DNA of 64,000 nucleotides from Marinobacter sp. (GTDB lineage Bacteria; Pseudomonadota; Gammaproteobacteria; Pseudomonadales; Oleiphilaceae). The stretch spans positions 39,790 to 103,789 of the forward strand of contig NZ_JACUUB010000003.1 in the NCBI RefSeq assembly GCF_014859525.1, given 5' to 3'. The notes beneath the pieces are model-generated. The model was not told where the DNA came from and did not search any database. It saw only the letters and a list, made by a program, of their open reading frames with translations. Both the position numbers and the translations under genes were made by a program. Below, one piece after another: positions 33,603 to 48,971 of the stretch (its first letter is position 1; each line of letters begins with the position of its first letter).

Positions 33603-33872
33603 ATGGACCAGAATCAAAAGTCAAAAACCGATCTCGACCGCGAAAGTCGCCGTTTTGCTGTCTCAGCTAACCGTGGCAACGCCAGCCATCGGGTGCGTTA
33701 TGTCGAATCCGGAGGTGCCGCGGTGGATAACGAAGAGTGCACATTCTGCCAAGCTGTGCCTGACCTGTCGGATGAGCAAAAAGTTAAAGCCACTCGAGTA
33801 AGTGGCCGCACGAACGCCAGCGAGTGCACTGATAGTGACGCTCAAACAAACGACGCTCATTTTGAGCGGTAG
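33603..33872 (+). CDS. Hypothetical small protein with CxxC
   Basis: AGGTGG upstream of ATG; CTFC motif; 3' end overlaps pxpC by 89 nt, so it is uncertain. Confidence 0.4.
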   Translation: MDQNQKSKTDLDRESRRFAVSANRGNASHRVRYVESGGAAVDNEECTFCQAVPDLSDEQKVKATRVSGRTNASECTDSDAQTNDAHFER

Positions 33873-34737
33873 CAAGATCCGTGATCTCAAAACGAACTCG
33901 GGTGCCGGGTAGCTGTTGGGCCAGAGCGCTGCAATCCAGGCTCGGAACAACTCCTGGCTTGGGGTACCCGCCAATCGTTTGACCGTCATTAAGCAGAACA
34001 ATCGGTTGTCCGTCGCCGGGAACCTGCACTGCGCCTTGCGCAATCCCCTCTGAGAGTATTCCCGGTGGTGGTGAATCCATTGCCGGCCCCTGCAAACGAA
34101 AGCCCATCCGGTCGGATTGATGACTGACGGTATAAGCGCTGTGAGTGAGCCGCAATATGTCGGAACGCGCAAACTGGTGGTACTGATAGCCGGGAATAAT
34201 CCGCAAACGGATGTCAGCAGACAACGCGGGACGGCACGCGATCGGCACCACGCGATCCGGCCGTGTATCATTTGATTTTAAAGCGGCGAGTTTGTCACCG
34301 GCCCTGATCGGGTCGAGTCCGGCGATGCGCTCCCTGATTACTACGGATCGACTGCCAAAGTGTAAGGGTGCGTCCAGTCCACCTGGTAGCGCAAGATAGA
34401 TCAATCGATGACTTGCTGAATGGCCGATGGTCAATTCATCGGCGTCGTTCAGGTTCAGGGTTTGCCACATCGATACCGGTTGACCATTAACGGCAACCGG
34501 TGCTTCAGCGCCGGTCAGTGCGATCTGCAACTTGCCCCTGGTAACCGCGTGAAAGCCCCCCAGTACGATTTCCAGACAGGCGGCGTTTCTTGGGTTGTCG
34601 AGTAATTTGTTAGCCCAGCTAAAGCTGCGTACATCGAGGGCACCGCCGCAAGCCAGGCCATGATGTCGGTAGCCCTGTCGCCCAGAATCCTGGACACTGC
34701 TGAGCACGCCTGGCCTGATGACCTCCAGCCAGCTCAT
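33784..34737 (-). CDS. pxpC: 5-oxoprolinase subunit C (biotin-dependent carboxyltransferase-like)
   Basis: SSVQDSGR.GYRHHG...GGALD, SDRMGFRL, GAVQVPGDGQPIVLL.D.QTIGGYPK. Confidence 0.88.
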   Translation of the reverse strand: MSWLEVIRPGVLSSVQDSGRQGYRHHGLACGGALDVRSFSWANKLLDNPRNAACLEIVLGGFHAVTRGKLQIALTGAEAPVAVNGQPVSMWQTLNLNDADELTIGHSASHRLIYLALPGGLDAPLHFGSRSVVIRERIAGLDPIRAGDKLAALKSNDTRPDRVVPIACRPALSADIRLRIIPGYQYHQFARSDILRLTHSAYTVSHQSDRMGFRLQGPAMDSPPPGILSEGIAQGAVQVPGDGQPIVLLNDGQTIGGYPKPGVVPSLDCSALAQQLPGTRVRFEITDLATAQNERRLFERHYQCTRWRSCGHLLEWL

Positions 34738-35432
34738 GGTAATCGTGTCTCGGTCAGCTTGCCCCCGGCGGCCAGAAAATCTTGCCGGCTAATGGCACAA
34801 AAGCGGACCCGATCGCCAACCCTGAGAAGCGATAGCGTGTCTGGATCAAACAGAGTGGTGGGGCAACAACCAATAATTTGCCAGCCGCCGGGAGATGCTT
34901 GCGGATAGACCGCCGTTTGTCGGTTTGCAATCCCGACACTGCCGGCGGGTACCTGTTTGCGCGGTGTTTGCTTGCGAGGTTTTGCAATCGCAGGGTCCAC
35001 TTCGCCCATAAAGGCAAAGCCGGGCGCAAATCCCAGGGCGTGAACCCGATACTCGATCGCGGTATGACGACGAATAATATCCAGCATATCCAGGCCAGTC
35101 TCTGCGGCTAACCACGCAAGATCTGGCCCTGATTCGATGCTGTAATAGACCGGAAGTTCAACAAGCTTGCCAGTTGGCGGCTGCTTGATGTCGGTTTGGA
35201 AGTCTTCAGTGCTCATGATGGTTTTGAGCCTGGAGGTTACGTCTCGAAAATCCGCTAACATGGGATCGTAGACCACGAGCAAGGTGGCGTAAGAGGGGAT
35301 GAGGTCTTGTAACCAGGGAAGCTTTGCGTCACGAAGGGATTGGCTGAGCCTGGCAATCCGGGCGGGCAAGGTGTCGTCGATGGCTTCCGCCAGAGTGATC
35401 AGTACTGCATCTTCCGACACCGGTTCGATCAT
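34734..35432 (-). CDS. pxpB: 5-oxoprolinase subunit B
   Basis: DLIPSYATLLV, GPDL, ALGFAPGFAF, VPAGSVGIA..QTAVYP..SPGGWQIIG. Confidence 0.9.
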   Translation of the reverse strand: MIEPVSEDAVLITLAEAIDDTLPARIARLSQSLRDAKLPWLQDLIPSYATLLVVYDPMLADFRDVTSRLKTIMSTEDFQTDIKQPPTGKLVELPVYYSIESGPDLAWLAAETGLDMLDIIRRHTAIEYRVHALGFAPGFAFMGEVDPAIAKPRKQTPRKQVPAGSVGIANRQTAVYPQASPGGWQIIGCCPTTLFDPDTLSLLRVGDRVRFCAISRQDFLAAGGKLTETRLP

Positions 35433-36169
35433 TATCCAGCGTTACCAAAGGCCCGACGGATTGCTTTAATGGCCGCTAGTGCTGCGGCGTTGTCGCCATG
35501 AACACACAGGCTGTCTGCGGGTAGCTCAAGCCAGTTACCGGTGGCACTGTATATGCCCCCTTGTTCAGCAAAGGACCGGGCCTGGCGGACAATGATTTCC
35601 GGGTCTTCGTGCACCGCACCGGCCTCGCGCCTGGAAACCAGCTGGCCATCGTCATCGTAGGCGCGGTCCGCAAAGGCTTCCAGCAGTAGAGGTATTCCAG
35701 CGTCTGCAGCCAACTGCTGATGGTCTCTGTAATGCCGTGTAACCGGGATCATCAAGGGCAGGTCCGACCGGAAGGTTCGGGTTGCGACCATCACGGCGCG
35801 CAGCAGATCTTTGTCCCGCATCATGTCGTTATTCAGGGCACCATGGGGTTTCACGTAGCGCAGGGTTAACCCTTCTTTCCGGCACATACCCTCCAGAGCT
35901 CCCAGTTGATAGAGCAGAAGCGCTTCAATTTCCTCTGGTGTGTGGGTAATAGAGCGACGACCGAACCCTGGAAGGTCGTGGTAGGAGGGGTGAGCGCCGA
36001 CCTCTACGTGGTGTTGGGCCGCCAAAGCAAGCGTCTGGCGTATAACCATAGGGTCTGCGGCGTGAAAGCCGCAGGCCACATTGGCCATATCAATCAGCGG
36101 CATGACCTGATCGTCCTGGCCCATCTGCCAGGCGCCGTAACTTTCACCCAGATCGCAGTTCAGTTTCAT
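35432..36169 (-). CDS. pxpA: 5-oxoprolinase subunit A (LamB/YcsF)
   Basis: LNCDLGESYG, NVACGFHAADP, GAHPSY.D..GFGRR, YVKPHGAL.N, EAFADRAY, CVHGDN. Confidence 0.93.
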   Translation of the reverse strand: MKLNCDLGESYGAWQMGQDDQVMPLIDMANVACGFHAADPMVIRQTLALAAQHHVEVGAHPSYHDLPGFGRRSITHTPEEIEALLLYQLGALEGMCRKEGLTLRYVKPHGALNNDMMRDKDLLRAVMVATRTFRSDLPLMIPVTRHYRDHQQLAADAGIPLLLEAFADRAYDDDGQLVSRREAGAVHEDPEIIVRQARSFAEQGGIYSATGNWLELPADSLCVHGDNAAALAAIKAIRRAFGNAG

Positions 36170-36184
36170 GCCGCCTAAAGCCCC

Positions 36185-37297
36185 TCAGATGTCGGTCCGG
36201 CCAGGGAAAGTTGCCTTTTTTCGTGCTTCGGCGCACTGCGCTCTGGCTGTAAGCTCGTCCGCGTCGTTCTTCGGTATCGCCCAGCCTTGCAGGTTGTCTT
36301 CAACCAGCTGCACCAAGGCTTCGATGTGACCGGGTGTTGCATTCAGGCATGGAATATAGCCAAAGGCTTCGCCTCCGGATTCGATAAAGTATTCCCGGTT
36401 TTCTTCGTTGATTTCCTCAATGGTTTCAAGGCAGTCTGAAGAAAAACCAGGGCAGAACACATCGATGGACTTTACGCCGTCACCGGGCAAAGACTTCAAG
36501 GTTTTGTCCGTGTAGGGCTGCAACCATTCCTCTCGGCCAAAGCGAGACTGGAAGGTGGTCATATAGTCGTCTGGTCCAAGCCCGAGGCGTTCTGCCAGGA
36601 GCCTTGATGTCTTGTGGCACTCGCAATGGTAGGGGTCACCTTTCAACAGATATTTTAGTGGGACACCGTGATAGGAAAGCACCAGTTTTTCATGACGACC
36701 GTGGTTGGCCCAGTGTGCTTCGATGTGCTGCGCCATAGCCTCGATGTAAGCCGGATAGTCATGGTAATGGGAGATAAACCGAAAATCAGGCAGCCAGCGG
36801 CGCTGGGCAAAGTCGTTTGAGATGGCGTCGAAGGTGGATGCGGTTGTGGAGGCGGAATAATGAGGGTACAAGGGCAAAACCAGTAACTTGCGAACGCCTT
36901 GATCCTGCATTTCATCCAGCACCCTTGCAATCGAGGGATTGCCGTAGCGCATGGCAAAGCCAACCACCACATTGCTTCCGTATTTGGCTTTGAGAGCCTC
37001 GCGAATGCCCTCCGCCTGTTTAGCGGTGTGAATGAGCAGTGGTGAGCCTTCGGGCTGCCAGACGCTGGCGTAGGCGGCAGCGCTCTTTTTGGGGCGAATT
37101 CTAAGAATAACGCCGTGCAGGATCAGCCACCAGATTGGGCGAGGCACTTCTACTACCCGTGGATCCCACAAAAATTCAGCCAGGTAGCGGCGCAGTGCCG
37201 ATGGGGTTGGCGCATCGGGTGTGCCCAAGTTGGTGACCAGAATGCCCAGGCGTTCGGGCTGGCTATGGCTGAAGTTATCGGTTCCGTTGTAGGGCAT
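36185..37297 (-). CDS. hemH: Ferrochelatase
   Basis: NLGTPDAP, AMRYGNPSI, LPLYPHYS, SYHGVP, FQSRFG..EWLQPYT, PGFSSDCLETIEE. Confidence 0.97.
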   Translation of the reverse strand: MPYNGTDNFSHSQPERLGILVTNLGTPDAPTPSALRRYLAEFLWDPRVVEVPRPIWWLILHGVILRIRPKKSAAAYASVWQPEGSPLLIHTAKQAEGIREALKAKYGSNVVVGFAMRYGNPSIARVLDEMQDQGVRKLLVLPLYPHYSASTTASTFDAISNDFAQRRWLPDFRFISHYHDYPAYIEAMAQHIEAHWANHGRHEKLVLSYHGVPLKYLLKGDPYHCECHKTSRLLAERLGLGPDDYMTTFQSRFGREEWLQPYTDKTLKSLPGDGVKSIDVFCPGFSSDCLETIEEINEENREYFIESGGEAFGYIPCLNATPGHIEALVQLVEDNLQGWAIPKNDADELTARAQCAEARKKATFPGRTDI

Positions 37298-37321
37298 GAA
37301 AACAATCCGGTGGTTGAGAGA

Positions 37322-37750
37322 TTAGCGCTTGCTGGCTTGTTGCATAAGGCGCGGTATGAGCCCAGTGATGTCATAACCCGCCTGCTGGGCTTTAGACAGT
37401 ATCTGTTGTGGTTCTTGCTCGCGGGCGCTGCTCAAGGACCATAATACGGTGCAGCGGGTACCTGAGCGGCAGAAGGCGAATACGGGCTTGGCGGCGTCGT
37501 GGATCATTGCACTAAAGTCGTCAACGTCAGCGTCGGTGATGTTGCCGGATTCTACGGGCAGGTATACCCAGGTCAGACCGTGCTCTGTTGCAGCGGCCTC
37601 GATATCGGCCATGGAGGGCTGCCCTGGTTCTTCCCGGTCTGGCCGGTTGGCAACCAGGGTTTTGAAACCCAGGCGCGCGATGTCTGCCACATCCTCGATA
37701 CTGATCTGCGGGGCGACGGAAATACTGTCATCGATCTTTCTGATATCCAC
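37322..37750 (-). CDS. TIGR01244-family sulfurtransferase (DUF442, phosphatase-like fold)
   Basis: SPQI-like VAPQI, ANRPDREEPGQP, PV.AFCRSGTRC; GTG start after GGAG. Confidence 0.88.
   Translation of the reverse strand: MDIRKIDDSISVAPQISIEDVADIARLGFKTLVANRPDREEPGQPSMADIEAAATEHGLTWVYLPVESGNITDADVDDFSAMIHDAAKPVFAFCRSGTRCTVLWSLSSAREQEPQQILSKAQQAGYDITGLIPRLMQQASKR
37479..37506 (-). promoter_or_regulatory. ECF11 (RpoE-ChrR)-type promoter inside the sulfurtransferase gene, directed at hemH
   Basis: TGATCC-acgacgccgccaagcc-CGTATT, i.e. TGATCC-N16-CGTAwT. Confidence 0.6.
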
Positions 37751-37838
37751 TGAGTGACTCCGATTAATTCAGGTGCCGGGCCCGCAGGCCCGGGCAAAGT
37801 GTAACCGCGACGTGTTAAACATGACGGCGTTTAGAGGC

Positions 37839-38270
37839 TCACGCGGCGGAAGCGGCCTTTTTGCGCTCGATGGCTTCAAAAAGAATCATACCCGCAACCA
37901 TGGAGCCAACAAACACCACCGCCTTGAATTCTCCGGCGCCCAACGCGACCAGTCCCGGTCCTGGGCAGAACCCTGCGATGCCCCAGCCGATACCAAACAT
38001 CAAACTACCAATCACCAGGCGCTTTTCAATCCGGTTATTGGTGGGCAGTTTCATCTCGAAACCAAGAAACGACAAGGTTCGCTTGCGAGCCAGCGCAAAC
38101 GCAAACACGCCAACCAGGATGGCACCGCCCATGACAAAGGCAAGGGACGGGTCCCACAGGCCGGCGATGTCCAGAAAACCAAGCACTTTCTCGGGATTGG
38201 CCATGCCAGAAACGATCAGGCCAAAGCCAAACAGCAGGCCGGCGAATAAGGATGCAAGGGAATATTTCAT
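37839..38270 (-). CDS. YeeE/YedE family sulfur-compound transporter subunit (PmpA/B-like)
   Basis: SGMANPEKVLGFLD..G.WDPSLAFVM, FGIGWGIAGFCPGP. Confidence 0.9.
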   Translation of the reverse strand: MKYSLASLFAGLLFGFGLIVSGMANPEKVLGFLDIAGLWDPSLAFVMGGAILVGVFAFALARKRTLSFLGFEMKLPTNNRIEKRLVIGSLMFGIGWGIAGFCPGPGLVALGAGEFKAVVFVGSMVAGMILFEAIERKKAASAA

Positions 38271-38274
38271 GGTA

Positions 38275-38712
38275 TCAGGCTCCGATCAGGTGGCGGATAA
38301 CGAAGACGGAAACAAAGCCCGCCGCCATAAAACTCAATGTAGCGACCAAAGAGCGTAAAGACAGGCGAGATAAACCACAGACACCGTGGCCACTGGTGCA
38401 GCCCGAGGCATAGCGTGTGCCGATGCCCACCAGCAAACCGGCGATGATCAGGGCAGGGTAGCCAGCATTAATTTCAATAGGCGGCAGCTCTGCCATTAGC
38501 ATCCATATTGCTGGAGCACCAATCAAACCCGCGAGGAAGGCCACGCGCCAGATGATATCGTGTTTTGTTGGGGTGAGCAGGCCGCCAAGAATGCCGCTTA
38601 TCCCGGCTATACGACCGTTCAGTAAGAGAAAACTGGCGGCAGCCAGGCCAATGAGAATGCCGCCGGCCAAGGCGGTACCGGGAGTGAACTGACTCCATGC
38701 GATATCAATCAT
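38275..38712 (-). CDS. YeeE/YedE family sulfur-compound transporter subunit (PmpA/B-like)
   Basis: GRIAGISG, GTRYASGCTSGHGVCGLSRLS.RS. Confidence 0.92.
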   Translation of the reverse strand: MIDIAWSQFTPGTALAGGILIGLAAASFLLLNGRIAGISGILGGLLTPTKHDIIWRVAFLAGLIGAPAIWMLMAELPPIEINAGYPALIIAGLLVGIGTRYASGCTSGHGVCGLSRLSLRSLVATLSFMAAGFVSVFVIRHLIGA

Positions 38713-38745
38713 TTGCAGTCTCCATAGGATGTAACACGAGGAATA

Positions 38746-38773
38746 AGCTTATAAGCAGGTGTGATAATATCAA
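38746..38773 (-). promoter_or_regulatory. Candidate sigma70 promoter of the YeeE pair
   Basis: TTGATA-N16-TAAGCT; the -10 overlaps the palindrome ATAAGCTTAT (38743-38752). Confidence 0.4.
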
Positions 38774-38880
38774 AAAAAGCCCGGCAAGGGATGCCGGGCA
38801 GAGGCGTGCGAGTAGTATCCATGAAAGACTTCCAGACAAACCGACATCAACGGGGATGCCGGTATCAGGAAGTATTGCCC
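38772..38880 (-). ncRNA. Candidate small RNA or attenuator leader (5' hairpin, single-stranded linker, terminator)
   Basis: Hairpin ACUUCC-GAU-ACCGGCAUC/GAUGUCGGU-GUC-GGAAGU (38873-38828), 28-nt linker, GCCCGGCA/UGCCGGGC stem plus U7; no upstream CDS on this strand for the terminator to serve; 5' end uncertain. Confidence 0.6.
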
Positions 38881-38996
38881 ATAATTTGGACAGTTCAAGT
38901 GAGAGCGGCTTTCGTTTGAAAACATTTTTTCATATACCATCAGCGTTTATACTGCGCCCTTTCCCTATGCGGTTTTCAGCGGGGTGATCAGGGGCA

Positions 38997-39025
38997 CTGA
39001 AATCCCGGTGTGGCTGTAATATAAT
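38997..39025 (+). promoter_or_regulatory. Candidate sigma70 promoter of the phasin gene
   Basis: CTGAAA-N17-TATAAT. Confidence 0.5.
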
Positions 39026-39064
39026 GGGAATCGAAGTTTCCCGCTTTGTTGCCAAGAGGTGTTC

Positions 39065-39484: not shown

Positions 39485-39487
39485 CGT

Positions 39488-40117: not shown

Positions 40118-40135
40118 CGTTGCCCGGCCAGTTGG

Positions 40136-40948: not shown

Positions 40949-41027
40949 GGGGGCAGGGTCTCCGGATCAATGTGTTCCGGAGTTTAACACACAGTAGCGA
41001 AGGTACGGTTTGGCAGCTTTGCCAAAT

Positions 41028-41771
41028 TTACGGTGTCAGCACACAATCTGGGTAGCGGGATACATCATAGCGAATGTGAGCGATGTAGTTGTCATCGGCG
41101 TTTTTGCGAATGTTGGTCAGGCCCAGGTACTCGGTTAGCGCACCTTCCCGGTTATAACCAAGCACAATCGGATCTACCAGAAATCTCAGAACCAGGCTCG
41201 TAGGACGTATCCGGACCACCACATCGGAACCGATCTGACTATTTGATGTTGGCTCCAACACAAACCCATAGTGTTCGCCTCTTGTCGGGGCAAGAAAACG
41301 GAATTCTACAGATTCGCCCTGTTTTACCTTGTTCCAGTTGGCCCTCACGAGGTGGTCAAAGCCGGCGTCTACAACGAGGCGGTCATCGAAAGAAACCTTG
41401 TGAGACTCCGTTTTACCCGCTGGGCTTTGCCATTGAACCTTGAGCTGCTCTGGCCCTTGATAAGAGATGTTCAGGTGTTCATCGTAATCCGGTTGGCTGA
41501 AATCAACGGTGGGGCGCAAAGCGCCATCTTCATAGCGCAGGGCTTTGCTCGCAAAAGTGCTGCTATCCTGGTTTGCTCGGTAGTCTACGCTGTGTGTAAT
41601 GGGCTGGAACACACCCTCAGCACAATGGCCTTCCACCCTGTGAGATTCCAGGTACAGCAGGTTGCCTCTGTCGTCCTTGGCGGTACCGGTGAACTCAAAC
41701 GGACTTCCGAATACCATCGGAGCACTCAAGAGGACCAGTAATGCGCTCAGGGAGACTGACGGTCGAATCAT
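41028..41771 (-). CDS. Hypothetical secreted protein (last gene of the lipid-modification operon)
   Basis: Signal peptide-like N-terminus; beta-rich; VVDAGFD motif; ATGA coupling with DUF2878. Confidence 0.8.
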   Translation of the reverse strand: MIRPSVSLSALLVLLSAPMVFGSPFEFTGTAKDDRGNLLYLESHRVEGHCAEGVFQPITHSVDYRANQDSSTFASKALRYEDGALRPTVDFSQPDYDEHLNISYQGPEQLKVQWQSPAGKTESHKVSFDDRLVVDAGFDHLVRANWNKVKQGESVEFRFLAPTRGEHYGFVLEPTSNSQIGSDVVVRIRPTSLVLRFLVDPIVLGYNREGALTEYLGLTNIRKNADDNYIAHIRYDVSRYPDCVLTP

Positions 41772-42292
41772 GACTGTAACTCCGAGTACAGGCTATTGCG
41801 GATGAATAGCAGCAGAGGAAAAAGTACCAGCCATCCCACGGCCATGGCCGCTAGAGACACGCTGAGATTGGGTAAGGTGACGATGCCGAGCTTGCTGGCG
41901 GACCAGTATGCAAAAGGGCCGGCTATTGGTGCAAAGACATAGGGCAGCCATTTACGCTGCCCCATCCACCCCAGAGAGTGACAAATGGTGGTCATGAAGA
42001 TCGCCCAGATCGCAACCAGCCACGGCGGTGCAACGAGGACGCTATCAACACCGGAAATGCCAAGCACGCCTGTCTGAAACCAGAGGGTGTCCATAAGGCT
42101 ACCGAGCACGACGCCAAAGCCGATAAACTGCAGCTCTACAAAGCGCTTTTGGCTTACCAGCGCAAAATGAAGTGCTAAAAACACCAACACCAACCCTGCC
42201 GCCGCCAAACCGGGGGCTAGCACGCAAGTCAGCCAGCCGATCTGGAACAGAACAAAATTGATGACGTTGCGGCCGGTCTCTGAGGCGATCAT
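41768..42292 (-). CDS. DUF2878 family membrane protein
   Basis: NFVLFQIGWL.CV, PPWLVAIW..F, GPFAYW. Confidence 0.85.
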   Translation of the reverse strand: MIASETGRNVINFVLFQIGWLTCVLAPGLAAAGLVLVFLALHFALVSQKRFVELQFIGFGVVLGSLMDTLWFQTGVLGISGVDSVLVAPPWLVAIWAIFMTTICHSLGWMGQRKWLPYVFAPIAGPFAYWSASKLGIVTLPNLSVSLAAMAVGWLVLFPLLLFIRNSLYSELQS

Positions 42293-43563
42293 AGGCTGAG
42301 GATATTGGTACGTTTGTTAGCGGGTTTGGCCATCACAAGATGGGCCACACCGATGGCACGCTCGCTGAAGCCCGCCTCGCAATAGGCAAAGTAGAAATGC
42401 CACAGGCGCTGGAAAGCGTCGTCGTAGCCTTGCTTGGCCAAGGTGTCGCGGTTTGCCATGAACCGATCGCACCAGTCTCTGAGCGTTCGAGCATAATGGA
42501 AGCCGAAATCTTCTGCGTGCGTCAGAACTAGGTCGGATTCCCGACGCATTGAGGTGAGTATGGCACCAAAGGAGGGAATAAAACTCCCCGGGAAAATAAA
42601 GCGCTGAATGAAATCTACGTTCTTCAAAGCACGGTCATAACGCTGTTCTGGCATATTGATGGCCTGGATCAGCGCCAGTCCATCGGGTTTGAGAAGTTTA
42701 CTGATCTGTGACAGATAGCTGTCCAGAAACTGAGGCCCGACCGCTTCGATCATTTCGATGGAAACCAACTTGTCGAACTGCCCCTCAAGATCGCGGTAGT
42801 CATCAAATAACAGTGTAATCTGATCCTCAAGACCTTCCGACTGGACTCGTGCTCTGGCCAGTTCCAGTTGCTCTTTAGAGATGGTGGTGGTGGTTACATG
42901 GCAACCGTAGTATTTCGCAGCATGAATGGCAAAGCCGCCCCAGCCCGTGCCGATTTCGACCACCCGATCTTCGGGTTTCAGATCCAACTTCTTGCAAATG
43001 GTGTCGAGCTTGTGGATGGCAGCTTCGTTAAGATCTGCGTCTTCTCGCGGATAAATCGCAGACGAGTACATCATGGTTGGATCCAGAAACAACTCGAACA
43101 GATCATTGCCCAGATCATAGTGGGCACTGATGTTCTTGCGGGAGCCTTCTGGTGTGTTTCGATTCAGCCAGTGCAGAGCCTTCAGGGCGGGTTTACTGAC
43201 CCAACTGAATTTGTCTTCGAACGCGTTCATTGTCTCGATATTACGGGTAAAAAATCTCAGCAGAGCGGTCAGGTCGGGAGAGCTCCAATCGCCAGCCACG
43301 TAAGATTCTGCTGCGCCAACACTGCCGCCGGTTACCAGATCACGCCAGGTAGTGTGGTCGTGAATAATCAATTCTGCGGCGGGGAAAGCCGGATTGTCAT
43401 CGCCGAAGACCAAATCTTCAAAACCCGCCTCACGAACCACGAGCCTGCCGTGACCCAGCAAGGACAGCTGGTGGCAAACCAGGCGTCGCGACACGCGACT
43501 GAGCGCCGGAATAGTCGAGCCACTGGCGGTTTGGTGGTCAGTGGACGTGTTCAGGTTCTCCAT
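42289..43563 (-). CDS. cfa: Cfa-family fatty-acyl methyltransferase (UfaM-like)
   Basis: NISAHYDLGNDLFELFLDPTMMYS, VEIGTGWGG, SIEMIEAVG, FIQRFIFPG, YCEAGF. Confidence 0.92.
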   Translation of the reverse strand: MENLNTSTDHQTASGSTIPALSRVSRRLVCHQLSLLGHGRLVVREAGFEDLVFGDDNPAFPAAELIIHDHTTWRDLVTGGSVGAAESYVAGDWSSPDLTALLRFFTRNIETMNAFEDKFSWVSKPALKALHWLNRNTPEGSRKNISAHYDLGNDLFELFLDPTMMYSSAIYPREDADLNEAAIHKLDTICKKLDLKPEDRVVEIGTGWGGFAIHAAKYYGCHVTTTTISKEQLELARARVQSEGLEDQITLLFDDYRDLEGQFDKLVSIEMIEAVGPQFLDSYLSQISKLLKPDGLALIQAINMPEQRYDRALKNVDFIQRFIFPGSFIPSFGAILTSMRRESDLVLTHAEDFGFHYARTLRDWCDRFMANRDTLAKQGYDDAFQRLWHFYFAYCEAGFSERAIGVAHLVMAKPANKRTNILSL

Positions 43564-44450
43564 GAGCTTACCCTGCCTTCAAGTTCTGAATGTTCGTGAG
43601 TCGATGCCGGTGATTCGGTAATATCTACACCTTGATCTTCCGCCCCCTTGCGATACCCACGGCTGCTTTCAACGAGTTTGTCCGGGTTGGTATAGAAGGG
43701 CGCGCCTTTAATCTTCAGTTTTAGCGCATTCCAGTAAATGCCGGCTGTACCCTTGATGGTTTCCAGCGGAAACCGTCTCAGGCCTCTATGTAAAGTTTTA
43801 CGGTCAAAGGGTATGCGTTGGACTACCAGAGTGGCATCAAAATGTTTTTGTTGGCCCTGCTCAACATTCATGTGGATTCTCAACTGGGGCCCCCGGAAGC
43901 TGAACAGCCATTGATAGTGCTGATTCATTCCGTTGAAGGGAGAGACATGAAACCGCTTACTGAAGGCAAACCGTTCGGTGTGCCAGTGGTCAGGATCTGT
44001 CACTTTCGATCGACGGGTTTCCAGACAATAGACGTGGCGCTGCTTCCAGGGTGTGTTGGTGATTTGAGCAAGGATAACGCGCGGAACATCGCCATATTGC
44101 GGGCTCTGGCCCGGCTCGTAGCACAGATAGAAACTCACCGGATTAAACACGTAGCCAAGATAACGGGGATGAGTGATCAACTCGATGGGACCTTCCGGCG
44201 CCCAGCCTGTCGCACTTTTTACCCGGTTGTAGACCGCTTGGCGAAGGCTTGGTACTTCTGGATCAAGGTAATCCTTTCGGTACAGAGACATCCAGTTGAA
44301 GCGTTCGAGTGAGAAGAATGGGCTGGACCGGGTAATAGAAGACCACTCATCCAGATCCAGTGCTAACATGCCAATCTTGTAACTAAAGTCATGTAAAACC
44401 GGGATCTTGCGACGATGTCTTATAGTGCCTTCTAACCAGTCAGTTGCCAT
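43551..44450 (-). CDS. DUF1365 family protein (UfaO-like)
   Basis: G.IRHRR..P..H.FSY, LGYVFNPVSFY, ITNTPW, K.FHVSPF. Confidence 0.9.
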   Translation of the reverse strand: MATDWLEGTIRHRRKIPVLHDFSYKIGMLALDLDEWSSITRSSPFFSLERFNWMSLYRKDYLDPEVPSLRQAVYNRVKSATGWAPEGPIELITHPRYLGYVFNPVSFYLCYEPGQSPQYGDVPRVILAQITNTPWKQRHVYCLETRRSKVTDPDHWHTERFAFSKRFHVSPFNGMNQHYQWLFSFRGPQLRIHMNVEQGQQKHFDATLVVQRIPFDRKTLHRGLRRFPLETIKGTAGIYWNALKLKIKGAPFYTNPDKLVESSRGYRKGAEDQGVDITESPASTHEHSELEGRVSSWRT

Positions 44451-44452
44451 GA

Positions 44453-45718
44453 TCAGAGTTCCACACCAAAGGCCTTGGTGACTCGCAACGCACTTCGCAC
44501 GCCATCTTCATGAAATCCGTTAAACCAATACGCGCCGCAGAAGTGGGTCCGGTTACGATTGCCGATCTCGTCGTATCGCCCCTGCGCGGCGACGGCTGCC
44601 AGGGTAAACACCGGGTGATCATATTCAAACCGTTTGATGACTTTGTCGGGGGCAATGTCGTGGCTGCGGTTCAGGGTGACGCAGAAGGTCTCCGGGGCGT
44701 CATGGAAGTTCTGCAGAACGTTCATGTTGTAAGTAACCGATACTGGTTGGGTGCTGTGCTCAGGAATCATGTAGTTCCAGGCTGCCCAGGCCAGTTTGTT
44801 GGAAGGCAGCACGCTGGCGTCGGTGTGCAGTACCACGTCGTTTTTCTGGTATGGAATAGCCCCCAGAATCTGCAGTTCCTGATCAGTCGGGTCACTTAAC
44901 ATGGCAAGCGCCTGGTCGCTGTGACAGGCCAGAATAACCTGATCAAACTGGTGTGTTTGGTCATTGACGGTCAGGCTTACGCCGTCCTTGCTGCGTTTAA
45001 TGCCGGTAACCGGGCTATTCAGGTGCGTACGCTCACCCAGGCGTTCCATCATACGAGTGACGTAACTGGCAGACCCGCCCGAGATCACTCTCCAGGTTGG
45101 GCGGTCATCCACAGACAGCATGCCGTGGTTATTGAAGAACTGAAGGAAAAACCGTATCGGAAATTGCTCAAGGATGATTTCTGGAGCAGACCAGATCGCG
45201 GCGCCCATCGGTACAATGTAATTGTTTCTAAAGTAGCGGCTGTAGCGGTTACGGTTCAAGTATTCGCCCAGGGTTTCACCTTCCGGGATCTGACCACTGG
45301 CCAGATCTGTGCGACTTTCTTTGTTGAAGCGAAGAATCTCACGGATCATTTTCAGAAAACCGACGTTAAGCAGATTCTTGCGCTGGGCAAACAGCGTGTT
45401 AAGGCTGGTTCCATTGTACTGAAGACCAGACGAGTGGCAGTCCACACTGAAACTCATGCTGCTGACTTCAGAAGGCACGCCAAGTCGATCCATCAGCTTG
45501 ATAAAGTTCGGGTAAGTCCAGTCGTTGTAGACTATGAAACCGGTGTTTACCGGCCAGGTGCGGCCTCCAGCATCAACTTTTTCTGTATTGGTATGGCCGC
45601 CCGCGTAATCGCCTGCCTCAAAAACATGCACGTCATGGTGTTCGCTCAACAGCCATGCCGCTGTCAATCCGGAGACGCCGGCGCCAATCACAGCAATACG
45701 CTGACGATTCGGGTTCAT
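44453..45718 (-). CDS. FAD-dependent oxidoreductase, amine-oxidase family (UfaD-like)
   Basis: IAVIGAGVSGL, GGHTNT, VNTGFIVYN..TYPNF, FCGAYW..GFHEDG; start ATG 45718. Confidence 0.9.
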   Translation of the reverse strand: MNPNRQRIAVIGAGVSGLTAAWLLSEHHDVHVFEAGDYAGGHTNTEKVDAGGRTWPVNTGFIVYNDWTYPNFIKLMDRLGVPSEVSSMSFSVDCHSSGLQYNGTSLNTLFAQRKNLLNVGFLKMIREILRFNKESRTDLASGQIPEGETLGEYLNRNRYSRYFRNNYIVPMGAAIWSAPEIILEQFPIRFFLQFFNNHGMLSVDDRPTWRVISGGSASYVTRMMERLGERTHLNSPVTGIKRSKDGVSLTVNDQTHQFDQVILACHSDQALAMLSDPTDQELQILGAIPYQKNDVVLHTDASVLPSNKLAWAAWNYMIPEHSTQPVSVTYNMNVLQNFHDAPETFCVTLNRSHDIAPDKVIKRFEYDHPVFTLAAVAAQGRYDEIGNRNRTHFCGAYWFNGFHEDGVRSALRVTKAFGVEL

Positions 45719-45749
45719 GCAATTCTTTCCTGTATCTGGAGAGTTCGGT

Positions 45750-46532
45750 TTACGAGTTTTCGTTACGTGCCATGGAGGCCGCCATGCGATCAATAAGAGC
45801 TTGGGGCAGTGCCCCCAGGGCCTTTAGCGTCCAGGTAAAACGCCGGGGGAACGCGATTTCAGACTTACCTTTCTCCAGGCCTGTTCGGATTCGTGTTGCT
45901 GCGTCTTCCGAACTGATGATGAACGGCATTGGGAAATCATTGCGGTCGGTCAGAGGGGTTTTTACAAAGCCCGGAGAGACCACTACCACATCAATGCCTT
46001 CAGCGGCCAAGTCTGCTCGTAAGGCCTGGGCAAAATAGGTCAGGGCGGCTTTAGATGCACCGTAGCCCTCAGCCCGTGCAAACGGGAACCACCAGGCGGA
46101 AGAGCTGACGATCACCAGAGTTGCAGGCTTGCCTTTGGCCCGGGTGGCGCGCAGTGCCGGTAACGCAATATCGAGGCTGCGGGCGGTTCCAACCACGTTG
46201 GTGACCATGTTGGCCTCAATAATCTGACTATCATAGTTAGCGACATCAAGGTATTCGCAGGTGCCGGCGTTAAGAATGGCCATATCGAGGTCGCCAAAGT
46301 GATTCAGCGTACCTTTTATGCTTTCAAGATCGGCGTTACTGGTGGTGTCTGCGGCTGCCGACACCATCTTGCCAGGGTAATGAGAGGCCAGAGTTTCCAG
46401 CGCTTCAAGTCTACGGCCAGTAACGATCACGTTGTGACCATGTTTAGCCAGATCATGAGCGACGGCTTCGCCAATGCCCGAAGACGCCCCGGTTAGCCAT
46501 ATGTTGCTACTACGAGAAAGGCGTTTGCTCAT
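45750..46532 (-). CDS. Short-chain dehydrogenase/reductase
   Basis: WLTGASSGIG, LNAGTCEY, YGASKAA, SPGFVKTPLTD.N.F.MP. Confidence 0.92.
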   Translation of the reverse strand: MSKRLSRSSNIWLTGASSGIGEAVAHDLAKHGHNVIVTGRRLEALETLASHYPGKMVSAAADTTSNADLESIKGTLNHFGDLDMAILNAGTCEYLDVANYDSQIIEANMVTNVVGTARSLDIALPALRATRAKGKPATLVIVSSSAWWFPFARAEGYGASKAALTYFAQALRADLAAEGIDVVVVSPGFVKTPLTDRNDFPMPFIISSEDAATRIRTGLEKGKSEIAFPRRFTWTLKALGALPQALIDRMAASMARNENS

Positions 46533-46996
46533 CCAGCCTGCTCCTTAACCCAGCGAATGACACCACCCACCACCGGCAGGTTTTCATACAGAAGCTGGCC
46601 TGCGTCGAAATAGTCGCGGTGATAGCGAACTCGTCCATCACGGATTTCCAGATGGCTAATTCCTTCTACCTCTACTGTTTTACCGCCTTTGATCCGTTTA
46701 TGCTGCAATTCCATTACCCAGGGAATGGTGCACCAACCGCGCTGAACCACGGAAGAACCAAACCGAAACTGGCATCGGATTACATTGCCGTAGGCACCTG
46801 CAAAATAGTGTGTTAGCTCATCCAGCCCATTAACCTCTCCAAATGGATCCCGAAACTGGATGTCTTCTCCATAAACTTCTTGAAGCTTGCTCAGATTGCC
46901 TTTGTCCAATTGATTGAACAGACTGCAGAACCTCTCCAACACCAATGGAAGTGTTGAGTCGGATGTACCGATGTCAATGATAGAGGCGGTTGTCAT
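46529..46996 (-). CDS. Nuclear transport factor 2 / SnoaL-like protein
   Basis: Y..DI.FRDPF..V.G, HRDYFD.G.LLYE.LPVVG; start ATG 46996 overlapping the desaturase stop. Confidence 0.88.
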   Translation of the reverse strand: MTTASIIDIGTSDSTLPLVLERFCSLFNQLDKGNLSKLQEVYGEDIQFRDPFGEVNGLDELTHYFAGAYGNVIRCQFRFGSSVVQRGWCTIPWVMELQHKRIKGGKTVEVEGISHLEIRDGRVRYHRDYFDAGQLLYENLPVVGGVIRWVKEQAG

Positions 46997-47949
46997 TGGC
47001 GCTTCCTCCTCAGGTTGTCCAACTCGCGGGTTTCTTGCTGAATGTGAGCGGGTATCGGGTTCAGATCCCAGACGATGCCCAGTTTTGATAGCACCCAAAG
47101 CCCATACCAGGTGAGGTCTATTTCGTACCATCGAAAGCCTTGTCTAACAGACTGCGGCCAACGATGATGGTTGTTATGCCAGCCTTCGCCGAGCGTAATC
47201 AAGGCCAGCCAAACGTTATTTCGGCTATCATCGTCGGTATCAAAGCGACGTTTGCCCCAAACGTGAGACAGGGAATTGATCGAAACCGTGGCATGGAACA
47301 AAAATACCGTCGAAATGAAGAAGCCCCAGACCAGTAACTGAAAACCATTGGTTTCCAATCCGGGTGCCCATGCGGCCAGAGCTTCGCCGATTGCGTAAAT
47401 GAGTACTGCAAAGGCGGCCGGAACCAGTGAGTCAAACCGGTTGATGAAGCGCAACTCAGGGAATTTCAGCCAGTCACGTATCCGCCGTTGATCCATGGCA
47501 AAGCCTGCATCGCAGGTAAACCATCCTGCGTGAGACCACCAGAAGCCACCTTGATGGGGGGAGTGGAGGTCTTCTGGATCATCCGAGTGTTGGTGATGGT
47601 GCCTGTGATGAGCGGCCCACCAAAGCGGACCTCGCTGAGCCGCGCTTGCGCCAAGAACCGCAAAGAAGAACTGAGCTTTACGGCCGGTTTTAAATGTTTT
47701 ATGGGAGAAGTACCGGTGATAAAACCCGGTTATTGAAAACATCCGGATCACAAAAAAAACGATCGCAAATACGACGGCGAAGGTACTTACGCCGGTAAAG
47801 AAAGCTAACAGACAGGCAAGGTGTAGCGCGATAAACGGCAAAACCCTAACCACGTTGAACGACCTGGAACTGGTGTCCAGGTGATCTGTTCCGGCTTCGG
47901 AATCGAACCATCTCAGAATGTTTGTTAACCAGTAATTCATTTGGGCCAT
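46993..47949 (-). CDS. Acyl-CoA/acyl-lipid desaturase (delta-9 type)
   Basis: Three His boxes HRYFSH, HRHHH, HNNHH; GEGWHNNHH; start could be 47949 or 47940. Confidence 0.92.
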   Translation of the reverse strand: MAQMNYWLTNILRWFDSEAGTDHLDTSSRSFNVVRVLPFIALHLACLLAFFTGVSTFAVVFAIVFFVIRMFSITGFYHRYFSHKTFKTGRKAQFFFAVLGASAAQRGPLWWAAHHRHHHQHSDDPEDLHSPHQGGFWWSHAGWFTCDAGFAMDQRRIRDWLKFPELRFINRFDSLVPAAFAVLIYAIGEALAAWAPGLETNGFQLLVWGFFISTVFLFHATVSINSLSHVWGKRRFDTDDDSRNNVWLALITLGEGWHNNHHRWPQSVRQGFRWYEIDLTWYGLWVLSKLGIVWDLNPIPAHIQQETRELDNLRRKRQ

Positions 47950-47957
47950 ATAAAACC

Positions 47958-48971
47958 ATGCTTAAAGTGACATCAGACATCACATCAATACGCAATGTCG
48001 CGGTTATCGGTTCAGGTCTGGCGGGCCTTTCGTCAGCCATTATTCTTGGCCAGATGGGCCATAATGTCAGGGTGTTTGAAAAAAGTCGCGGTCCTGGCGG
48101 CCGAATGTCGTCGAAACGGGTCAGCGATGGGTCTGCTGACATCGGAGCGCAATATTTCACCGTCCGAAACCCGAACTTTCTCACCTTCTTACACCAGTAC
48201 GCTGGTGCTTCCACGTTTGATACGTGGTCAGCCCGGTTTGGGTTTCAAGATTCGGATAACATCTGGCAGCCGTTCCCGCAAGAGAACCGGTACGTGGGTG
48301 TTCCTCGGATGACCGCAATCACCCGTGCGCTCTCAGCCGGCATAGATTTGGTATCGGAAGTCCGTATCGAACGCCTGGTGCAAGCCGGTGAGCAGTGGCG
48401 GTTGGAATGCACAGAAGGGAAGAGCCACGGGCTGTTCGATCAGGTGGTGATAACTGCGCCACCGGCACAAGCTCAGGACATTTTGATGGGCAGCGGGTTG
48501 GCTGAACTGGCTGCAAAACTGGTATCGCCTGTCGAGCAGATTTTACCGTGCTGGGCGGTTGCTGCCCATTTTGCGCAACCGCCAACCGACCGATTTGACG
48601 CCATGCGACCAAATTCCGACACGCTCTACTGGGTGGCCAACAATTCTTCCAAACCGGGCCGTGACGGTTCTGGTCAGTGGTGGGTGCTGCATGCCACCCC
48701 GGAGTGGACAAAGGCTAATGTTGAAACAGCACCGGATGAGGTGTGCGCCGAATTGTTGAGGGAGTTCCGGTCTTTGACGGACCACACCGGTGACCCGACC
48801 GAAACTGTCGCACACCGTTGGCTGTATGCACGCTCGGCAGACGCTGACAATCCCGGCTACCTGCTGGATCAGAAAAAGCGCATTGGATTGGCCGGGGACT
48901 GGCTGGCGGGTGGTCGGGTTGAGGGCGCTTGGGAGAGCGCCACCAAACTGGCGGCAGCCATGCAGTCTTAA
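47958..48971 (+). CDS. NAD(P)/FAD-dependent oxidoreductase, renalase-like
   Basis: VAVIGSGLAG, FEKSRGPGGRMSSKR, DIGAQYFT, HRWLYA, GDWLAGGRVEGAW; start uncertain. Confidence 0.88.
   Translation: MLKVTSDITSIRNVAVIGSGLAGLSSAIILGQMGHNVRVFEKSRGPGGRMSSKRVSDGSADIGAQYFTVRNPNFLTFLHQYAGASTFDTWSARFGFQDSDNIWQPFPQENRYVGVPRMTAITRALSAGIDLVSEVRIERLVQAGEQWRLECTEGKSHGLFDQVVITAPPAQAQDILMGSGLAELAAKLVSPVEQILPCWAVAAHFAQPPTDRFDAMRPNSDTLYWVANNSSKPGRDGSGQWWVLHATPEWTKANVETAPDEVCAELLREFRSLTDHTGDPTETVAHRWLYARSADADNPGYLLDQKKRIGLAGDWLAGGRVEGAWESATKLAAAMQS
47987..48014 (-). promoter_or_regulatory. ECF11-type promoter inside the renalase gene, directed at the desaturase operon
   Basis: TGAACC-gataaccgcgacattg-CGTATT, one mismatch to TGATCC-N16-CGTAwT. 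Confidence 0.55.

Follow-up and report, generated by a model that had tools for sequence, protein, structure and literature searches.

Predicted ECF11-type promoters inside coding sequence upstream of hemH and of a furan-fatty-acid operon in Marinobacter

Introduction

The core regulon of the ECF11 sigma factor sigma-E and ChrR in Rhodobacter sphaeroides consists of rpoE-chrR, phrA, cfaS/ufaM and RSP1091-1087 (PMC6852236, PMC7380195), and hemH is not a reported target there (PMC4336711). The zinc ligands of ChrR are H6, H31, C35 and C38 in the anti-sigma domain and H141, H143, E147 and H177 in the cupin domain (PMC6852236), and the roles of the Ufa families are described in PMC7380195. The RpoE2-ChrR regulon of Shewanella oneidensis contains pgpD-hemH2, ybgA-phrB-...-cfa, phr and rpoE2-chrR (PMC4336711, PMC6664582). 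Its promoters, for which start sites were mapped, have the consensus TGATCC-N16-CGTATT/CGTAAT (PMC4336711). In Pseudomonas syringae the motif of the PSPTO_1043/1042 regulon was found by ChIP-seq to be TGATCC-N16-CGTA. There the phrB operon has its promoter within the neighbouring upstream gene PSPTO_1122, and of 87 peaks that bear the motif 54 fall in coding regions (PMC5507510). That this sigma factor uses intragenic promoters is therefore already established.

Here we analyzed a window of 64,000 nucleotides (the whole stretch of DNA) from a Marinobacter genome that was assembled from a metagenome. An initial annotation of the window had proposed that a singlet-oxygen regulon is served by promoters hidden in neighbouring genes, naming cfa/ufa genes and a Shewanella hemH as known RpoE-ChrR targets, which is in agreement with the literature (PMC4336711, PMC7380195). 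The system is similar to that of S. oneidensis with respect to promoter consensus, target classes (a ferrochelatase, photolyases and an operon that includes cfa, besides autoregulation) and rationale, protoporphyrin IX being a photosensitiser. It differs in that Marinobacter has a single hemH, with the predicted promoter embedded in the upstream sulfurtransferase coding sequence and with pxpABC next in some lineages. The predicted Marinobacter targets include an operon with UfaD-like, UfaO-like (DUF1365) and SDR/SnoaL-type genes, in which they resemble the targets of R. sphaeroides, whereas in Marinobacter a UfaM-like methylase is encoded in the same operon, with a membrane desaturase before and DUF2878 after, and the predicted ufa promoter lies within a divergent gene. 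Neither hemH nor pxp is among the targets reported for P. syringae (PMC5507510), while for the embedded Marinobacter sites conservation at synonymous positions was measured across the genus.

Results

The sigma factor and anti-sigma factor

The sigma and anti-sigma genes were said in the initial annotation to be absent from the window. This was correct, and an ECF11-ChrR pair was found elsewhere in the genome, on contig C77, where the sigma gene (C77:45423..44764) overlaps the ChrR gene (C77:44767..44129) by 4 nt. ChrR scored 151.5 bits with TIGR02451 (cut-off 124.5) and 43.7 bits with the cupin model PF12973 (27). It aligned over its full length with R. sphaeroides ChrR (2Z2S_B, 109 bits, residues 3-200), the zinc ligands being identical at eight of eight positions (rhH, Hld, CphC, aHtHrgnE, dEHkP). 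The best solved-structure match of the adjoining sigma factor was RpoE of the sigma-E/ChrR complex (2Q1Z_A, 120 bits), and the next-best ECF sigma structure scored 56 bits. Both proteins are clear homologues of the R. sphaeroides pair.

The upstream regions of rpoE from seven Marinobacter had an invariant ATCC-N16-CGTA (as TGATCC, AGATCC or CAATCC), which agrees with the Shewanella RpoE2 consensus (PMC4336711) and is in line with autoregulation of an ECF sigma factor. In the genome studied the rpoE promoter reads CAATCC-N16-CGTACA, not TGATCC, and its end is 26 nt from the start of the longest rpoE ORF.

Two embedded motifs and their distribution in the genome

Two predicted promoters were located in the window, each within a host gene:

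37479..37506, minus strand: M1, predicted ECF11-type promoter, TGATCC-N16-CGTATT (-35 37506..37501, -10 37484..37479)
37322..37750, minus strand: host gene of M1, TIGR01244-family sulfurtransferase (PF04273, DUF442, CX5R loop; TIGR01244 160.8 bits, cut-off 85.85)
47987..48014, minus strand: M2, predicted ECF11-type promoter, TGAACC-N16-CGTATT (-35 48014..48009, -10 47992..47987)
47958..48971, plus strand: host gene of M2, divergent FAD-dependent amine-oxidase-family oxidoreductase ('renalase-like'), ATG 47958

On the minus strand M1 (37506..37479) reads TGATCC-ACGACGCCGCCAAGCC-CGTATT and M2 (48014..47987) reads TGAACC-GATAACCGCGACATTG-CGTATT. The positions, the N16 spacing and the shared CGTATT first described for the two motifs were all recovered, as was their location in coding sequence, M2 being antisense in its host; the second -35 is TGAACC and not TGATCC. 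M1 precedes the ATG of hemH by 181 nt and has a predicted start site near 37473, and M2 precedes that of the desaturase gene (47949) by 37 nt and has a predicted start site near 47980.

The genome-wide scan proposed at the outset gave five matches to the 12-base pattern TGAWCC-N16-CGTATT, where base composition predicts about 0.5. When the two hexamers were placed at 34 other spacings the mean was 0.53 matches, and the pattern was enriched at spacing 16 only. The third match, TGAACC-N16-CGTATT on C153, precedes a photolyase-related gene (DPRP, 297 bits) by 43 nt. Two matches, C43:6164 and C80:2126, lie deep within genes unrelated to the regulon and seem to be fortuitous or non-productive. Relaxed matches were found ahead of a DNA photolyase gene on C96 (CGATCC-N16-CGTATG) and ahead of rpoE. 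The core-regulon genes preceded by the motif are the DPRP gene, the DNA photolyase gene and the ufa operon (M2). There was no support for the renalase-like gene, xthA and the sulfurtransferase gene, listed in the initial annotation as other damage-control genes, as further regulon members; the first and the last serve as promoter hosts only.

Conservation of M1 upstream of hemH

In alignments with 32-34 congeners the codons of M1 and M2 were found to be the most synonymously conserved of their host genes, although the codons fixed there (GTA, ATA and TCA) are disfavoured; the look at orthologues that the initial annotation had called for was thus positive for both sites. The congener species are related and their counts not independent, and the rank test within each alignment controls for this kinship. 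We propose from these alignments that selection on promoter and protein may act on the same bases and so fix codons that are otherwise disfavoured.

M1 was found at the same place in 27 of 34 congeners with its synonymous positions invariant, and codons ATC83, CCC89 and GTA90 ranked 1, 4 and 2 in synonymous conservation among 55 degenerate codons (P ~1.5e-4). Seven congeners lacked M1, and each one without the -35 was also without the -10. Six of these seven had a new NNATCY-N16-CGTA nearer to hemH, so that a sense-strand motif was present in 33 of 34 congeners, G030 being the sole exception. Among 80 named loci there were 51 sense matches upstream, none antisense and four within the hemH coding sequence. 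Outside Marinobacter about eleven loci, including those of Tamilnaduibacter, Halomonas, Mangrovitalea and Oceanospirillaceae, had an intergenic motif 30-96 nt upstream of hemH.

M1 covers the codons M-I-H...P-V-F directly before the CX5R loop of the sulfurtransferase, and it could be a chance match held by coding constraint at this active site, with hemH-pxpABC transcribed by read-through or from another promoter and only M2 being real. The residues concerned (M-I...K-P-V before CX5R) are indeed conserved, and the -10 lies on a P-V pair possibly favoured by the protein family, so part of the conservation may be protein-driven. A chance origin would also fit with the 10-base core TGAWCC-N16-CGTA, which was not enriched genome-wide (eight observed, about 11 expected), and with the two exact 12-mers that are intragenic and without obvious target. 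The sequencing runs that contain sequence of this organism are DNA metagenomes only. The RNA contigs of a relative run unbroken from the sulfurtransferase gene into hemH and show no 5' end near the predicted M1 start, being assembled contigs that carry no 5'-end information. However, ATC, CCC and GTA never vary at their third positions, while each of four other Val codons of the gene occurs in all four synonymous forms. The residue following Ile is H, R or Q across congeners, and the first base of its codon is always C. Furthermore, the -35 and -10 disappear jointly, replacements with the same N16 spacing have arisen at three other positions, the non-Marinobacter loci have a different upstream gene, and there was not one antisense match at any locus. 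A chance match is therefore highly improbable, and M1 is very probably a promoter.

Conservation of M2 and the furan-fatty-acid operon

The genes downstream of M2 were assigned as follows:

46993..47949, minus strand: membrane fatty-acid desaturase (PF00487), first gene of the M2 target operon
41028..47131, minus strand: rest of the M2 target operon (SnoaL-like, SDR, UfaD-like, UfaO-like, UfaM-like, DUF2878 and a 247-aa protein)
44453-45793, minus strand: UfaD-like, amine-oxidase-family flavoprotein, adjoining the DUF1365 gene
43551-44450, minus strand: UfaO-like (DUF1365), 245 bits
42289-43563, minus strand: UfaM-like methylase of the CFA synthase family (PF02353 CMAS, 270 bits), a family-level assignment

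UfaM is a SAM-dependent fatty-acyl methylase and UfaD a flavin desaturase. The DUF1365 protein and the amine-oxidase-family flavoprotein form a candidate UfaO-UfaD pair that fits the description of RSP1090/RSP1091 (PMC7380195).

M2 is antisense to codons 10-19 of the oxidase and covers G-S of the GxGxxG motif. Each of the 34 Marinobacter sequences examined had M2, in one case with CGAA for CGTA, and M. halophilus is an example of a cultured species with both M1 and M2. The codons TCA19 (32 of 32), GGT18 (30 of 32) and xTA11 (32 of 32) hold ranks 1-3 in synonymous conservation among 29 (P ~2.7e-4). In two congeners (G007 and G018) the change from GGT to GGA yields the canonical TGATCC. A third (G016) has lost the oxidase ORF, of which about 60 nt remain, and these still contain TGAACC-N16-CGTAAG.

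The motifs could be functional DNA or RNA signals that are read by another ECF sigma factor or respond to another stimulus, such as general oxidative stress or heat. The phrB gene of P. fluorescens bears such motifs without an ECF11 homologue (PMC5507510), ChrR was not found in two congeners that have M1 (G021 and G024), and two others (G053 and G056) have ChrR and no hemH motif. The assemblies of G021 and G024 are however incomplete (84 and 91%), so the absence of ChrR there is weak evidence, and in G030, which has no hemH motif, neither ChrR nor the ufa desaturase was found. As ATCC-N16-CGTA precedes rpoE-chrR throughout the genus and the targets (photolyases, ufa/cfa operon and hemH) make up the published ECF11 set, we find a different reader or stimulus very unlikely. 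M1 and M2 are very probably working promoters of the ChrR-paired ECF11 sigma-E, driving hemH (with pxpABC) and the ufa operon; the comparison of genomes speaks strongly for this reading.

The hemH-pxpABC locus

The genes downstream of M1 are:

36185..37297, minus strand: hemH, ferrochelatase (TIGR00109, 320.7 bits), single copy in the genome
35432..36169, minus strand: pxpA (LamB/YcsF; NF003816, 340 bits versus 213)
34734..35432, minus strand: pxpB (TIGR00370, 160.9 bits versus 145.55), start overlapping the pxpA stop
33784..34737, minus strand: pxpC-like carboxyltransferase subunit (TIGR00724, 230.6 bits versus 230.2), start overlapping the pxpB stop
33788..33807, minus strand: terminator-like hairpin at the pxpC stop, likely the end of the hemH-pxpABC transcript

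By family models pxpABC encodes a putative ATP-dependent 5-oxoprolinase; the pxpC-like protein passes the broad TIGR00724 only and is below the cut-off of the PxpC equivalog model (192.9 versus 500).

In one count pxpA was found behind hemH in nine of 36 Marinobacter, and in another in 15 of about 46. The hemH-linked pxpA genes form a distinct group with 60-87% identity to the copy studied here, while most Marinobacter have pxpA elsewhere in the genome, about 55% identical to this copy. Since the linkage is seen in about a quarter to a third of the species, pxpABC are lineage-specific passengers and not conserved targets. The initial proposal of the two promoters is supported by the present results, with this caveat for pxpABC.

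M1 might accordingly drive hemH alone, with pxpABC having its own signal or being attenuated, not meaningfully stress-induced, and placed there by a neutral accident of gene order. The patchy linkage and the diverged pxpA elsewhere in most Marinobacter point in this direction, and in the literature we found no paper that ties oxoprolinase to ChrR or singlet oxygen. Against it, only 15 nt separate the hemH stop from the pxpA ATG, a gap that contains no hairpin and is too short for a promoter, the pxp starts and stops overlap, and a strong hairpin is seen at the pxpC stop only. The motif is moreover retained at 13 of 15 hemH-pxpA loci, and the hemH-linked pxpA is the sole pxpA of this genome. 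We consider transcription of hemH alone unlikely, and a common transcript with pxpABC would be expected.

Discussion

According to the proposed mechanism, ChrR would keep sigma-E inactive until the cell is stressed by singlet oxygen or organic peroxides. RNA polymerase with the freed sigma-E would then initiate within a few bases after each CGTATT. The transcript from M2 would cover the desaturase, SnoaL, SDR, UfaD-like, UfaO-like (DUF1365), UfaM-like and DUF2878 genes, the conserved furan-fatty-acid arm of the regulon. From M1 it would begin within the sulfurtransferase gene and cover hemH and, in this lineage, pxpABC. Extra ferrochelatase would drain protoporphyrin IX, the photosensitiser. 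As the genome has no ferrochelatase gene besides hemH, basal expression of hemH must have another source, most likely read-through from the upstream genes, and M1 would add a stress-inducible boost. The same bases would serve as promoter and encode protein, P-V before the catalytic Cys for M1 and G-S of the FAD-binding motif for M2.

These findings extend a stress system that is already known and do not define a system of a new kind, since the motif, Shewanella hemH2, sigma-E-controlled ufa genes and the intragenic phrB promoter of P. syringae are already published. The newer points are a single hemH with an embedded stress promoter and pxpABC behind hemH in about a third of Marinobacter. A fuller reading is that the sole, essential hemH is wired to the singlet-oxygen response through a promoter embedded in a sulfurtransferase active site, under dual selection across most Marinobacter and rebuilt when lost, and that a distinct PxpABC paralogue was recruited behind it in one lineage; for this reading we see the chances as evenly balanced. 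If it is true, repair of 5-oxoproline (the gamma-glutamyl/glutathione cycle) would be an arm of the ECF11 response to photo-oxidative stress that has not been recognised before.

Altogether, reading of raw sequence can reveal real intragenic regulatory sites that annotation pipelines and most intergenic-only regulon predictions would miss. M1 and M2 make up a clean natural case of double-coded DNA, the codons GTA, ATA and TCA apparently being frozen by promoter function. Such sites are subject to turnover from lineage to lineage, and in one case the promoter has persisted after loss of the gene that contained it. A testable lead from the linkage with pxpABC is that removal of 5-oxoproline may be coupled to photo-oxidative stress in some lineages. 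With this analysis the known range of the ECF11 singlet-oxygen regulon grows to include Marinobacter and neighbouring marine gammaproteobacteria, where hemH is a recurrent target, and this supports draining of protoporphyrin IX as a general defence of light-exposed non-phototrophs.

Two ECF11-type motifs and their gene settings

The initial annotation proposed a singlet-oxygen regulon with promoters inside the coding sequence of neighbouring genes. It would be controlled by sigma-E (RpoE, an ECF11 sigma factor) and its anti-sigma factor ChrR. Two ECF11-type motifs were read from the sequence, M1 upstream of hemH-pxpABC and M2 upstream of a desaturase/furan-fatty-acid (ufa) operon:

37506..37479, minus strand: M1, TGATCC-N16-CGTATT
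48014..47987, minus strand: M2, TGAACC-N16-CGTATT
36185-37297, minus strand: hemH, downstream of M1

The motifs share their spacing (N16) and -10 (CGTATT) as proposed, but not the -35, which in M2 is TGAACC instead of TGATCC. M1 lies in frame in a gene for a 142-aa TIGR01244/PF04273 sulfurtransferase (37750..37322), where it spans the codons ATG-ATC-CAC ... CCC-GTA-TTC that immediately precede the CX5R loop AFCRSGTRC. The hemH ATG (37297) follows 181 nt downstream of M1. pxpA begins 15 nt past hemH and the starts of pxpB and pxpC overlap the preceding stops. M2 runs antisense to a divergent gene for an FAD-dependent oxidase (ATG 47958), over its codons 10-19 (S-I-R-N-V-A-V-I-G-S), and precedes the ATG of a membrane desaturase (47949) by 37 nt. 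The gene order from M2 is desaturase, SnoaL-like, SDR, amine-oxidase-family flavoprotein, DUF1365, CFA-synthase-family methylase, DUF2878 and an unassigned 247-aa protein. In the furan-fatty-acid pathway of Rhodobacter, DUF1365 is UfaO, the flavin desaturase UfaD and the methylase UfaM (PMC7380195), and the pathway genes are sigma-E targets (PMC7380195; PMC6852236). The window proteins are labelled Ufa-like from family models. From the desaturase to pxpC about 19 genes are co-directional (33784-47949, minus strand), and this strand of the interval has just two strong terminator-like hairpins, one at 38799..38779, the other at the pxpC stop.

The proposed regulator is encoded in the genome

The assembly containing the window (3.23 Mb, 165 contigs) has Marinobacter halophilus as its closest named relative, and it appears to be metagenome-assembled, because DNA metagenomes are the only sequencing runs containing the window. 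The ECF11-ChrR pair expected for such a regulon is present on contig C77, where the ECF sigma gene overlaps the ChrR gene. With TIGR02451, ChrR reaches 151.5 bits (cut-off 124.5). Its alignment to R. sphaeroides ChrR (2Z2S_B) spans residues 3-200 and shows 8/8 zinc ligands retained. Among solved structures, the sigma factor is closest to the RpoE chain of the complex with ChrR (2Q1Z_A; 120 bits), with the next ECF sigma at 56 bits. ChrR was detected in 32 of 36 congeners.

Upstream of rpoE, ATCC-N16-CGTA is invariant in seven Marinobacter species, the version in this genome being CAATCC-N16-CGTACA; such a pattern is the hallmark of autoregulated ECF promoters. The motif matches the experimentally mapped promoters of Shewanella RpoE2, TGATCC-N16-CGTATT/CGTAAT (PMC4336711). 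A TGATCC located 9 nt upstream of CAATCC was rejected as the -35, since it has no CGTA at N16 (spacing 25); conservation follows the register CAATCC-N16-CGTACA. The rpoE leader, downstream of the sigma-E promoter, contains a strongly conserved CTGACAA-N16-TAGAAT followed by ATGATGA...CTGTCAAGGAGCG (C77:45440..45380, minus strand; congener loci L083-L088, columns ~425-500 of the rpoE upstream alignment), which looks like a sigma-70-type promoter and, ahead of the GTG start, either a conserved leader or a short upstream ORF. The genome also encodes a 226-aa protein with two ChrR-type cupin domains (PF12973, 121 and 105 bits) and without the zinc anti-sigma domain (C100:3829-4449, minus strand), and a relaxed motif, CGAACC-N16-CGTATA, is located at C100:5278..5251.

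Conservation and turnover of M1 upstream of hemH

The genome has a single copy of hemH. The 335-nt regions preceding hemH were aligned for 34 congeners, and 27 of these have TGATCC-N16-CGTA at the same position of the sulfurtransferase gene. The synonymous sites of the motif were conserved in the orthologues. Among sequences with the majority residue, the M1 codons were ATC83 in 27/28, GTA90 in 27/29 and CCC89 in 28/32, ranking 1, 2 and 4 among 55 degenerate conserved codons with a median top-codon share of 0.56 (P ~1.5e-4 for all three within the top four). GTA is the rarest Val codon in neighbouring genes (19%), and the other four Val codons of the sulfurtransferase gene each occur as all four synonymous codons across congeners. 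The codon after the M1 Ile encodes H, R or Q, and its first base is always the C that completes TGATCC.

The -10 was missing in all seven species without the -35, and in six of these a new copy of the motif with the same spacing was found. In G007 and G018 the replacement is TGATCT-N16-CGTATG, which lies at -53 and still within the sulfurtransferase gene, near its 3' end; in G027 and G028 it is TGATCC/TGATCT-N16-CGTAT in the spacer; and in G029, G008 and G032, which have a different upstream gene, it is TCATCC/CAATCT-N16-CGTA. Altogether, a sense-strand motif upstream of hemH was found in 33 of 34 congeners and an antisense motif in none. The sole exception, G030, reads ATCATTC...CCCATA at the M1 position, and neither ChrR nor the ufa desaturase was found in its genome (95% complete, 390 contigs), which would fit a lineage that lost the entire regulon and in which the embedded site then decayed.

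Across 80 named loci, a relaxed form of the motif was counted 51 times in sense in the 500 nt upstream of hemH, never in antisense, and four times within hemH itself (1,000 nt of coding sequence). In about 11 non-Marinobacter loci, including Tamilnaduibacter, Halomonas (a metagenome genome), Mangrovitalea and Oceanospirillaceae, the motif is intergenic, 30-96 nt upstream of hemH. The overall pattern cannot be put down to constraint on the protein. The species counts are phylogenetically non-independent, a problem lessened by the within-alignment ranks, the independent turnover events and the other genera. Roughly 100 motif sites were compiled in the whole analysis.

A sigma-70-like sequence in the sulfurtransferase gene (CTGACC-N16-TAGAAT, 37576..37549) was also considered as a constitutive promoter for hemH. 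Because the other sequences of the alignment do not share its -10 (they have GTGGAG/GTGGAA), it was dismissed as chance.

Conservation of M2 upstream of the desaturase

TGA(A/T)CC-N16-CG(T/A)A was found at the M2 position in 34/34 Marinobacter sequences. In the oxidase gene Ser19 is TCA in 32/32, one of six possible codons with 10% local use, and Gly18 is GGT in 30/32, while five other nearby Gly codons show all four synonyms. Codon 11 is xTA in 32/32 despite encoding I, V or L. The M2 codons rank 1-3 of 29 (P ~2.7e-4). GGA at Gly18 in G007 and G018 turns TGAACC into the canonical TGATCC. G016 has no oxidase ORF; a remnant of ~60 nt ('...TSLRNIEGIGSE') stops at the -35, and TGAACC-N16-CGTAAG is retained upstream of the desaturase (L060, ~318-431). 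In G022 the oxidase gene is seemingly disrupted and the -10 mutated (CGAATA).

In most congeners the oxidase and desaturase genes are ~130 nt apart, and this spacer carries another conserved element on the desaturase strand, GCATCC-N17-CGTA(A/C) (L053, L059, L063, L066 and others; columns ~195-226 of the alignment), which may act as an additional promoter in tandem, with 17 nt between its two halves. In this genome and seven relatives the spacer is a compact 8 nt and the embedded site is the only one; the additional element is deleted in this clade. Cultured Marinobacter with both M1 and M2 include M. halophilus JCM 30472 and M. vinifirmus, the latter in the compact form.

Genome-wide occurrence of the motif

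The 10-base core TGAWCC-N16-CGTA was found 8 times in the whole genome against ~11 expected, i.e., at chance level, which rules it out as a regulon predictor on its own. The 12-base motif TGAWCC-N16-CGTATT was enriched, with five matches against ~0.5 expected; both hexamers at 34 other spacings (6-40) gave a mean of 0.53 and a maximum of 3. Besides M1 and M2, a third match precedes a photolyase-related gene (PF04244, 297 bits) by 43 nt. The remaining two (TGAACC-N16-CGTATT) lie deep within unrelated genes, for a 672-aa acidic secreted-looking protein (C43:6164-6191) and a 530-aa transporter-like protein (C80:2126-2153), and the nearest gene start is more than 300 nt away. They could be due to chance, mark antisense-free internal starts, or be bound without productive outcome, as in the P. 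syringae ChIP data; being probably chance or non-productive, they were not counted as regulon promoters.

A relaxed scan added a DNA photolyase gene (CGATCC-N16-CGTATG), rpoE itself and candidates 9-39 nt upstream of further ORFs. One is GCATCC-N16-CGTAAT (C96:13609-13636), ahead of a DJ-1/PfpI gene that lies 2 kb from the photolyase; the others are CAATCC-N16-CGTAT(T/G), ahead of DUF4864 and SDR genes (C115:5771-5798 and 7161-7188). All may belong to an extended regulon.

Linkage of pxpABC to hemH

PxpA and PxpB score above curated-model cut-offs, and PxpC passes a broad family model only. pxpA immediately follows hemH in 9 of 36 congeners and in 15 of ~46 named Marinobacter loci, 13 of which carry the motif. 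The hemH-linked copies are 60-87% identical to that of the window, whereas in other species pxpA is ~55% identical and located elsewhere. Two species (G004, G005) have both copies; this genome has the hemH-linked copy only. By sequence, linked and unlinked pxpA are distinct paralogues, and the hemH-linked set might act on a substrate other than 5-oxoproline. Since the linkage is patchy across species, hemH stands out as the target kept across the genus, with pxpABC as a passenger in some lineages.

In M. flavimaris, ~680 nt without a convincing ORF separate hemH from a gene for a BAX-inhibitor-like membrane protein (L095:2611-3292). RNA contigs reach ~490 nt beyond the hemH stop, and a long 3' UTR or non-coding RNA may be present here.

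Transcription and other proposed targets

Membership of the renalase-like, xthA and sulfurtransferase genes in the sigma-E regulon was not supported, as all three lack their own motif. The TGATCC directly ahead of the xthA ATG (40968..40963) was dismissed because there is no CGTA at N16. No terminator was found on the minus strand between the last ufa-operon gene (ends 41028) and xthA (40948) or the TetR gene, and sigma-E transcripts might read through from the ufa operon into both; for xthA this could be the only possible sigma-E route.

RNA contigs from a relative of M. flavimaris cover the sulfurtransferase gene through hemH without a break; being assembled contigs without 5' ends, they are uninformative on M1. 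Because of this continuous coverage, basal hemH expression is most likely due to read-through.

ChrR holds sigma-E until singlet oxygen or organic peroxide frees it (PMC6852236). Freed sigma-E would direct RNA polymerase to start just downstream of CGTATT. From M2 the predicted transcript would have a leader of ~30 nt followed by the desaturase and furan-fatty-acid genes; from M1 it would have a leader of ~175 nt, made up of the sulfurtransferase gene's final third, followed by hemH-pxpABC. The physiological rationale could be removal of protoporphyrin IX and, for pxpABC, of 5-oxoproline from gamma-glutamyl turnover.

The motif, its regulator, the ufa/cfa and photolyase targets and an RpoE2-dependent ferrochelatase have been published. 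An intragenic promoter of the same sigma factor is known from P. syringae (phrB inside PSPTO_1122), where 54 of 87 motif-bearing ChIP peaks are in coding DNA (PMC5507510). The present finding is therefore a well-supported extension of a known kind of system. A literature search found no publication linking oxoprolinase to ChrR or singlet oxygen. What is new, modestly, is pxpABC as a candidate passenger of a sigma-E promoter and a lone housekeeping hemH whose double-coded stress promoter is embedded in another gene and turns over across the genus.
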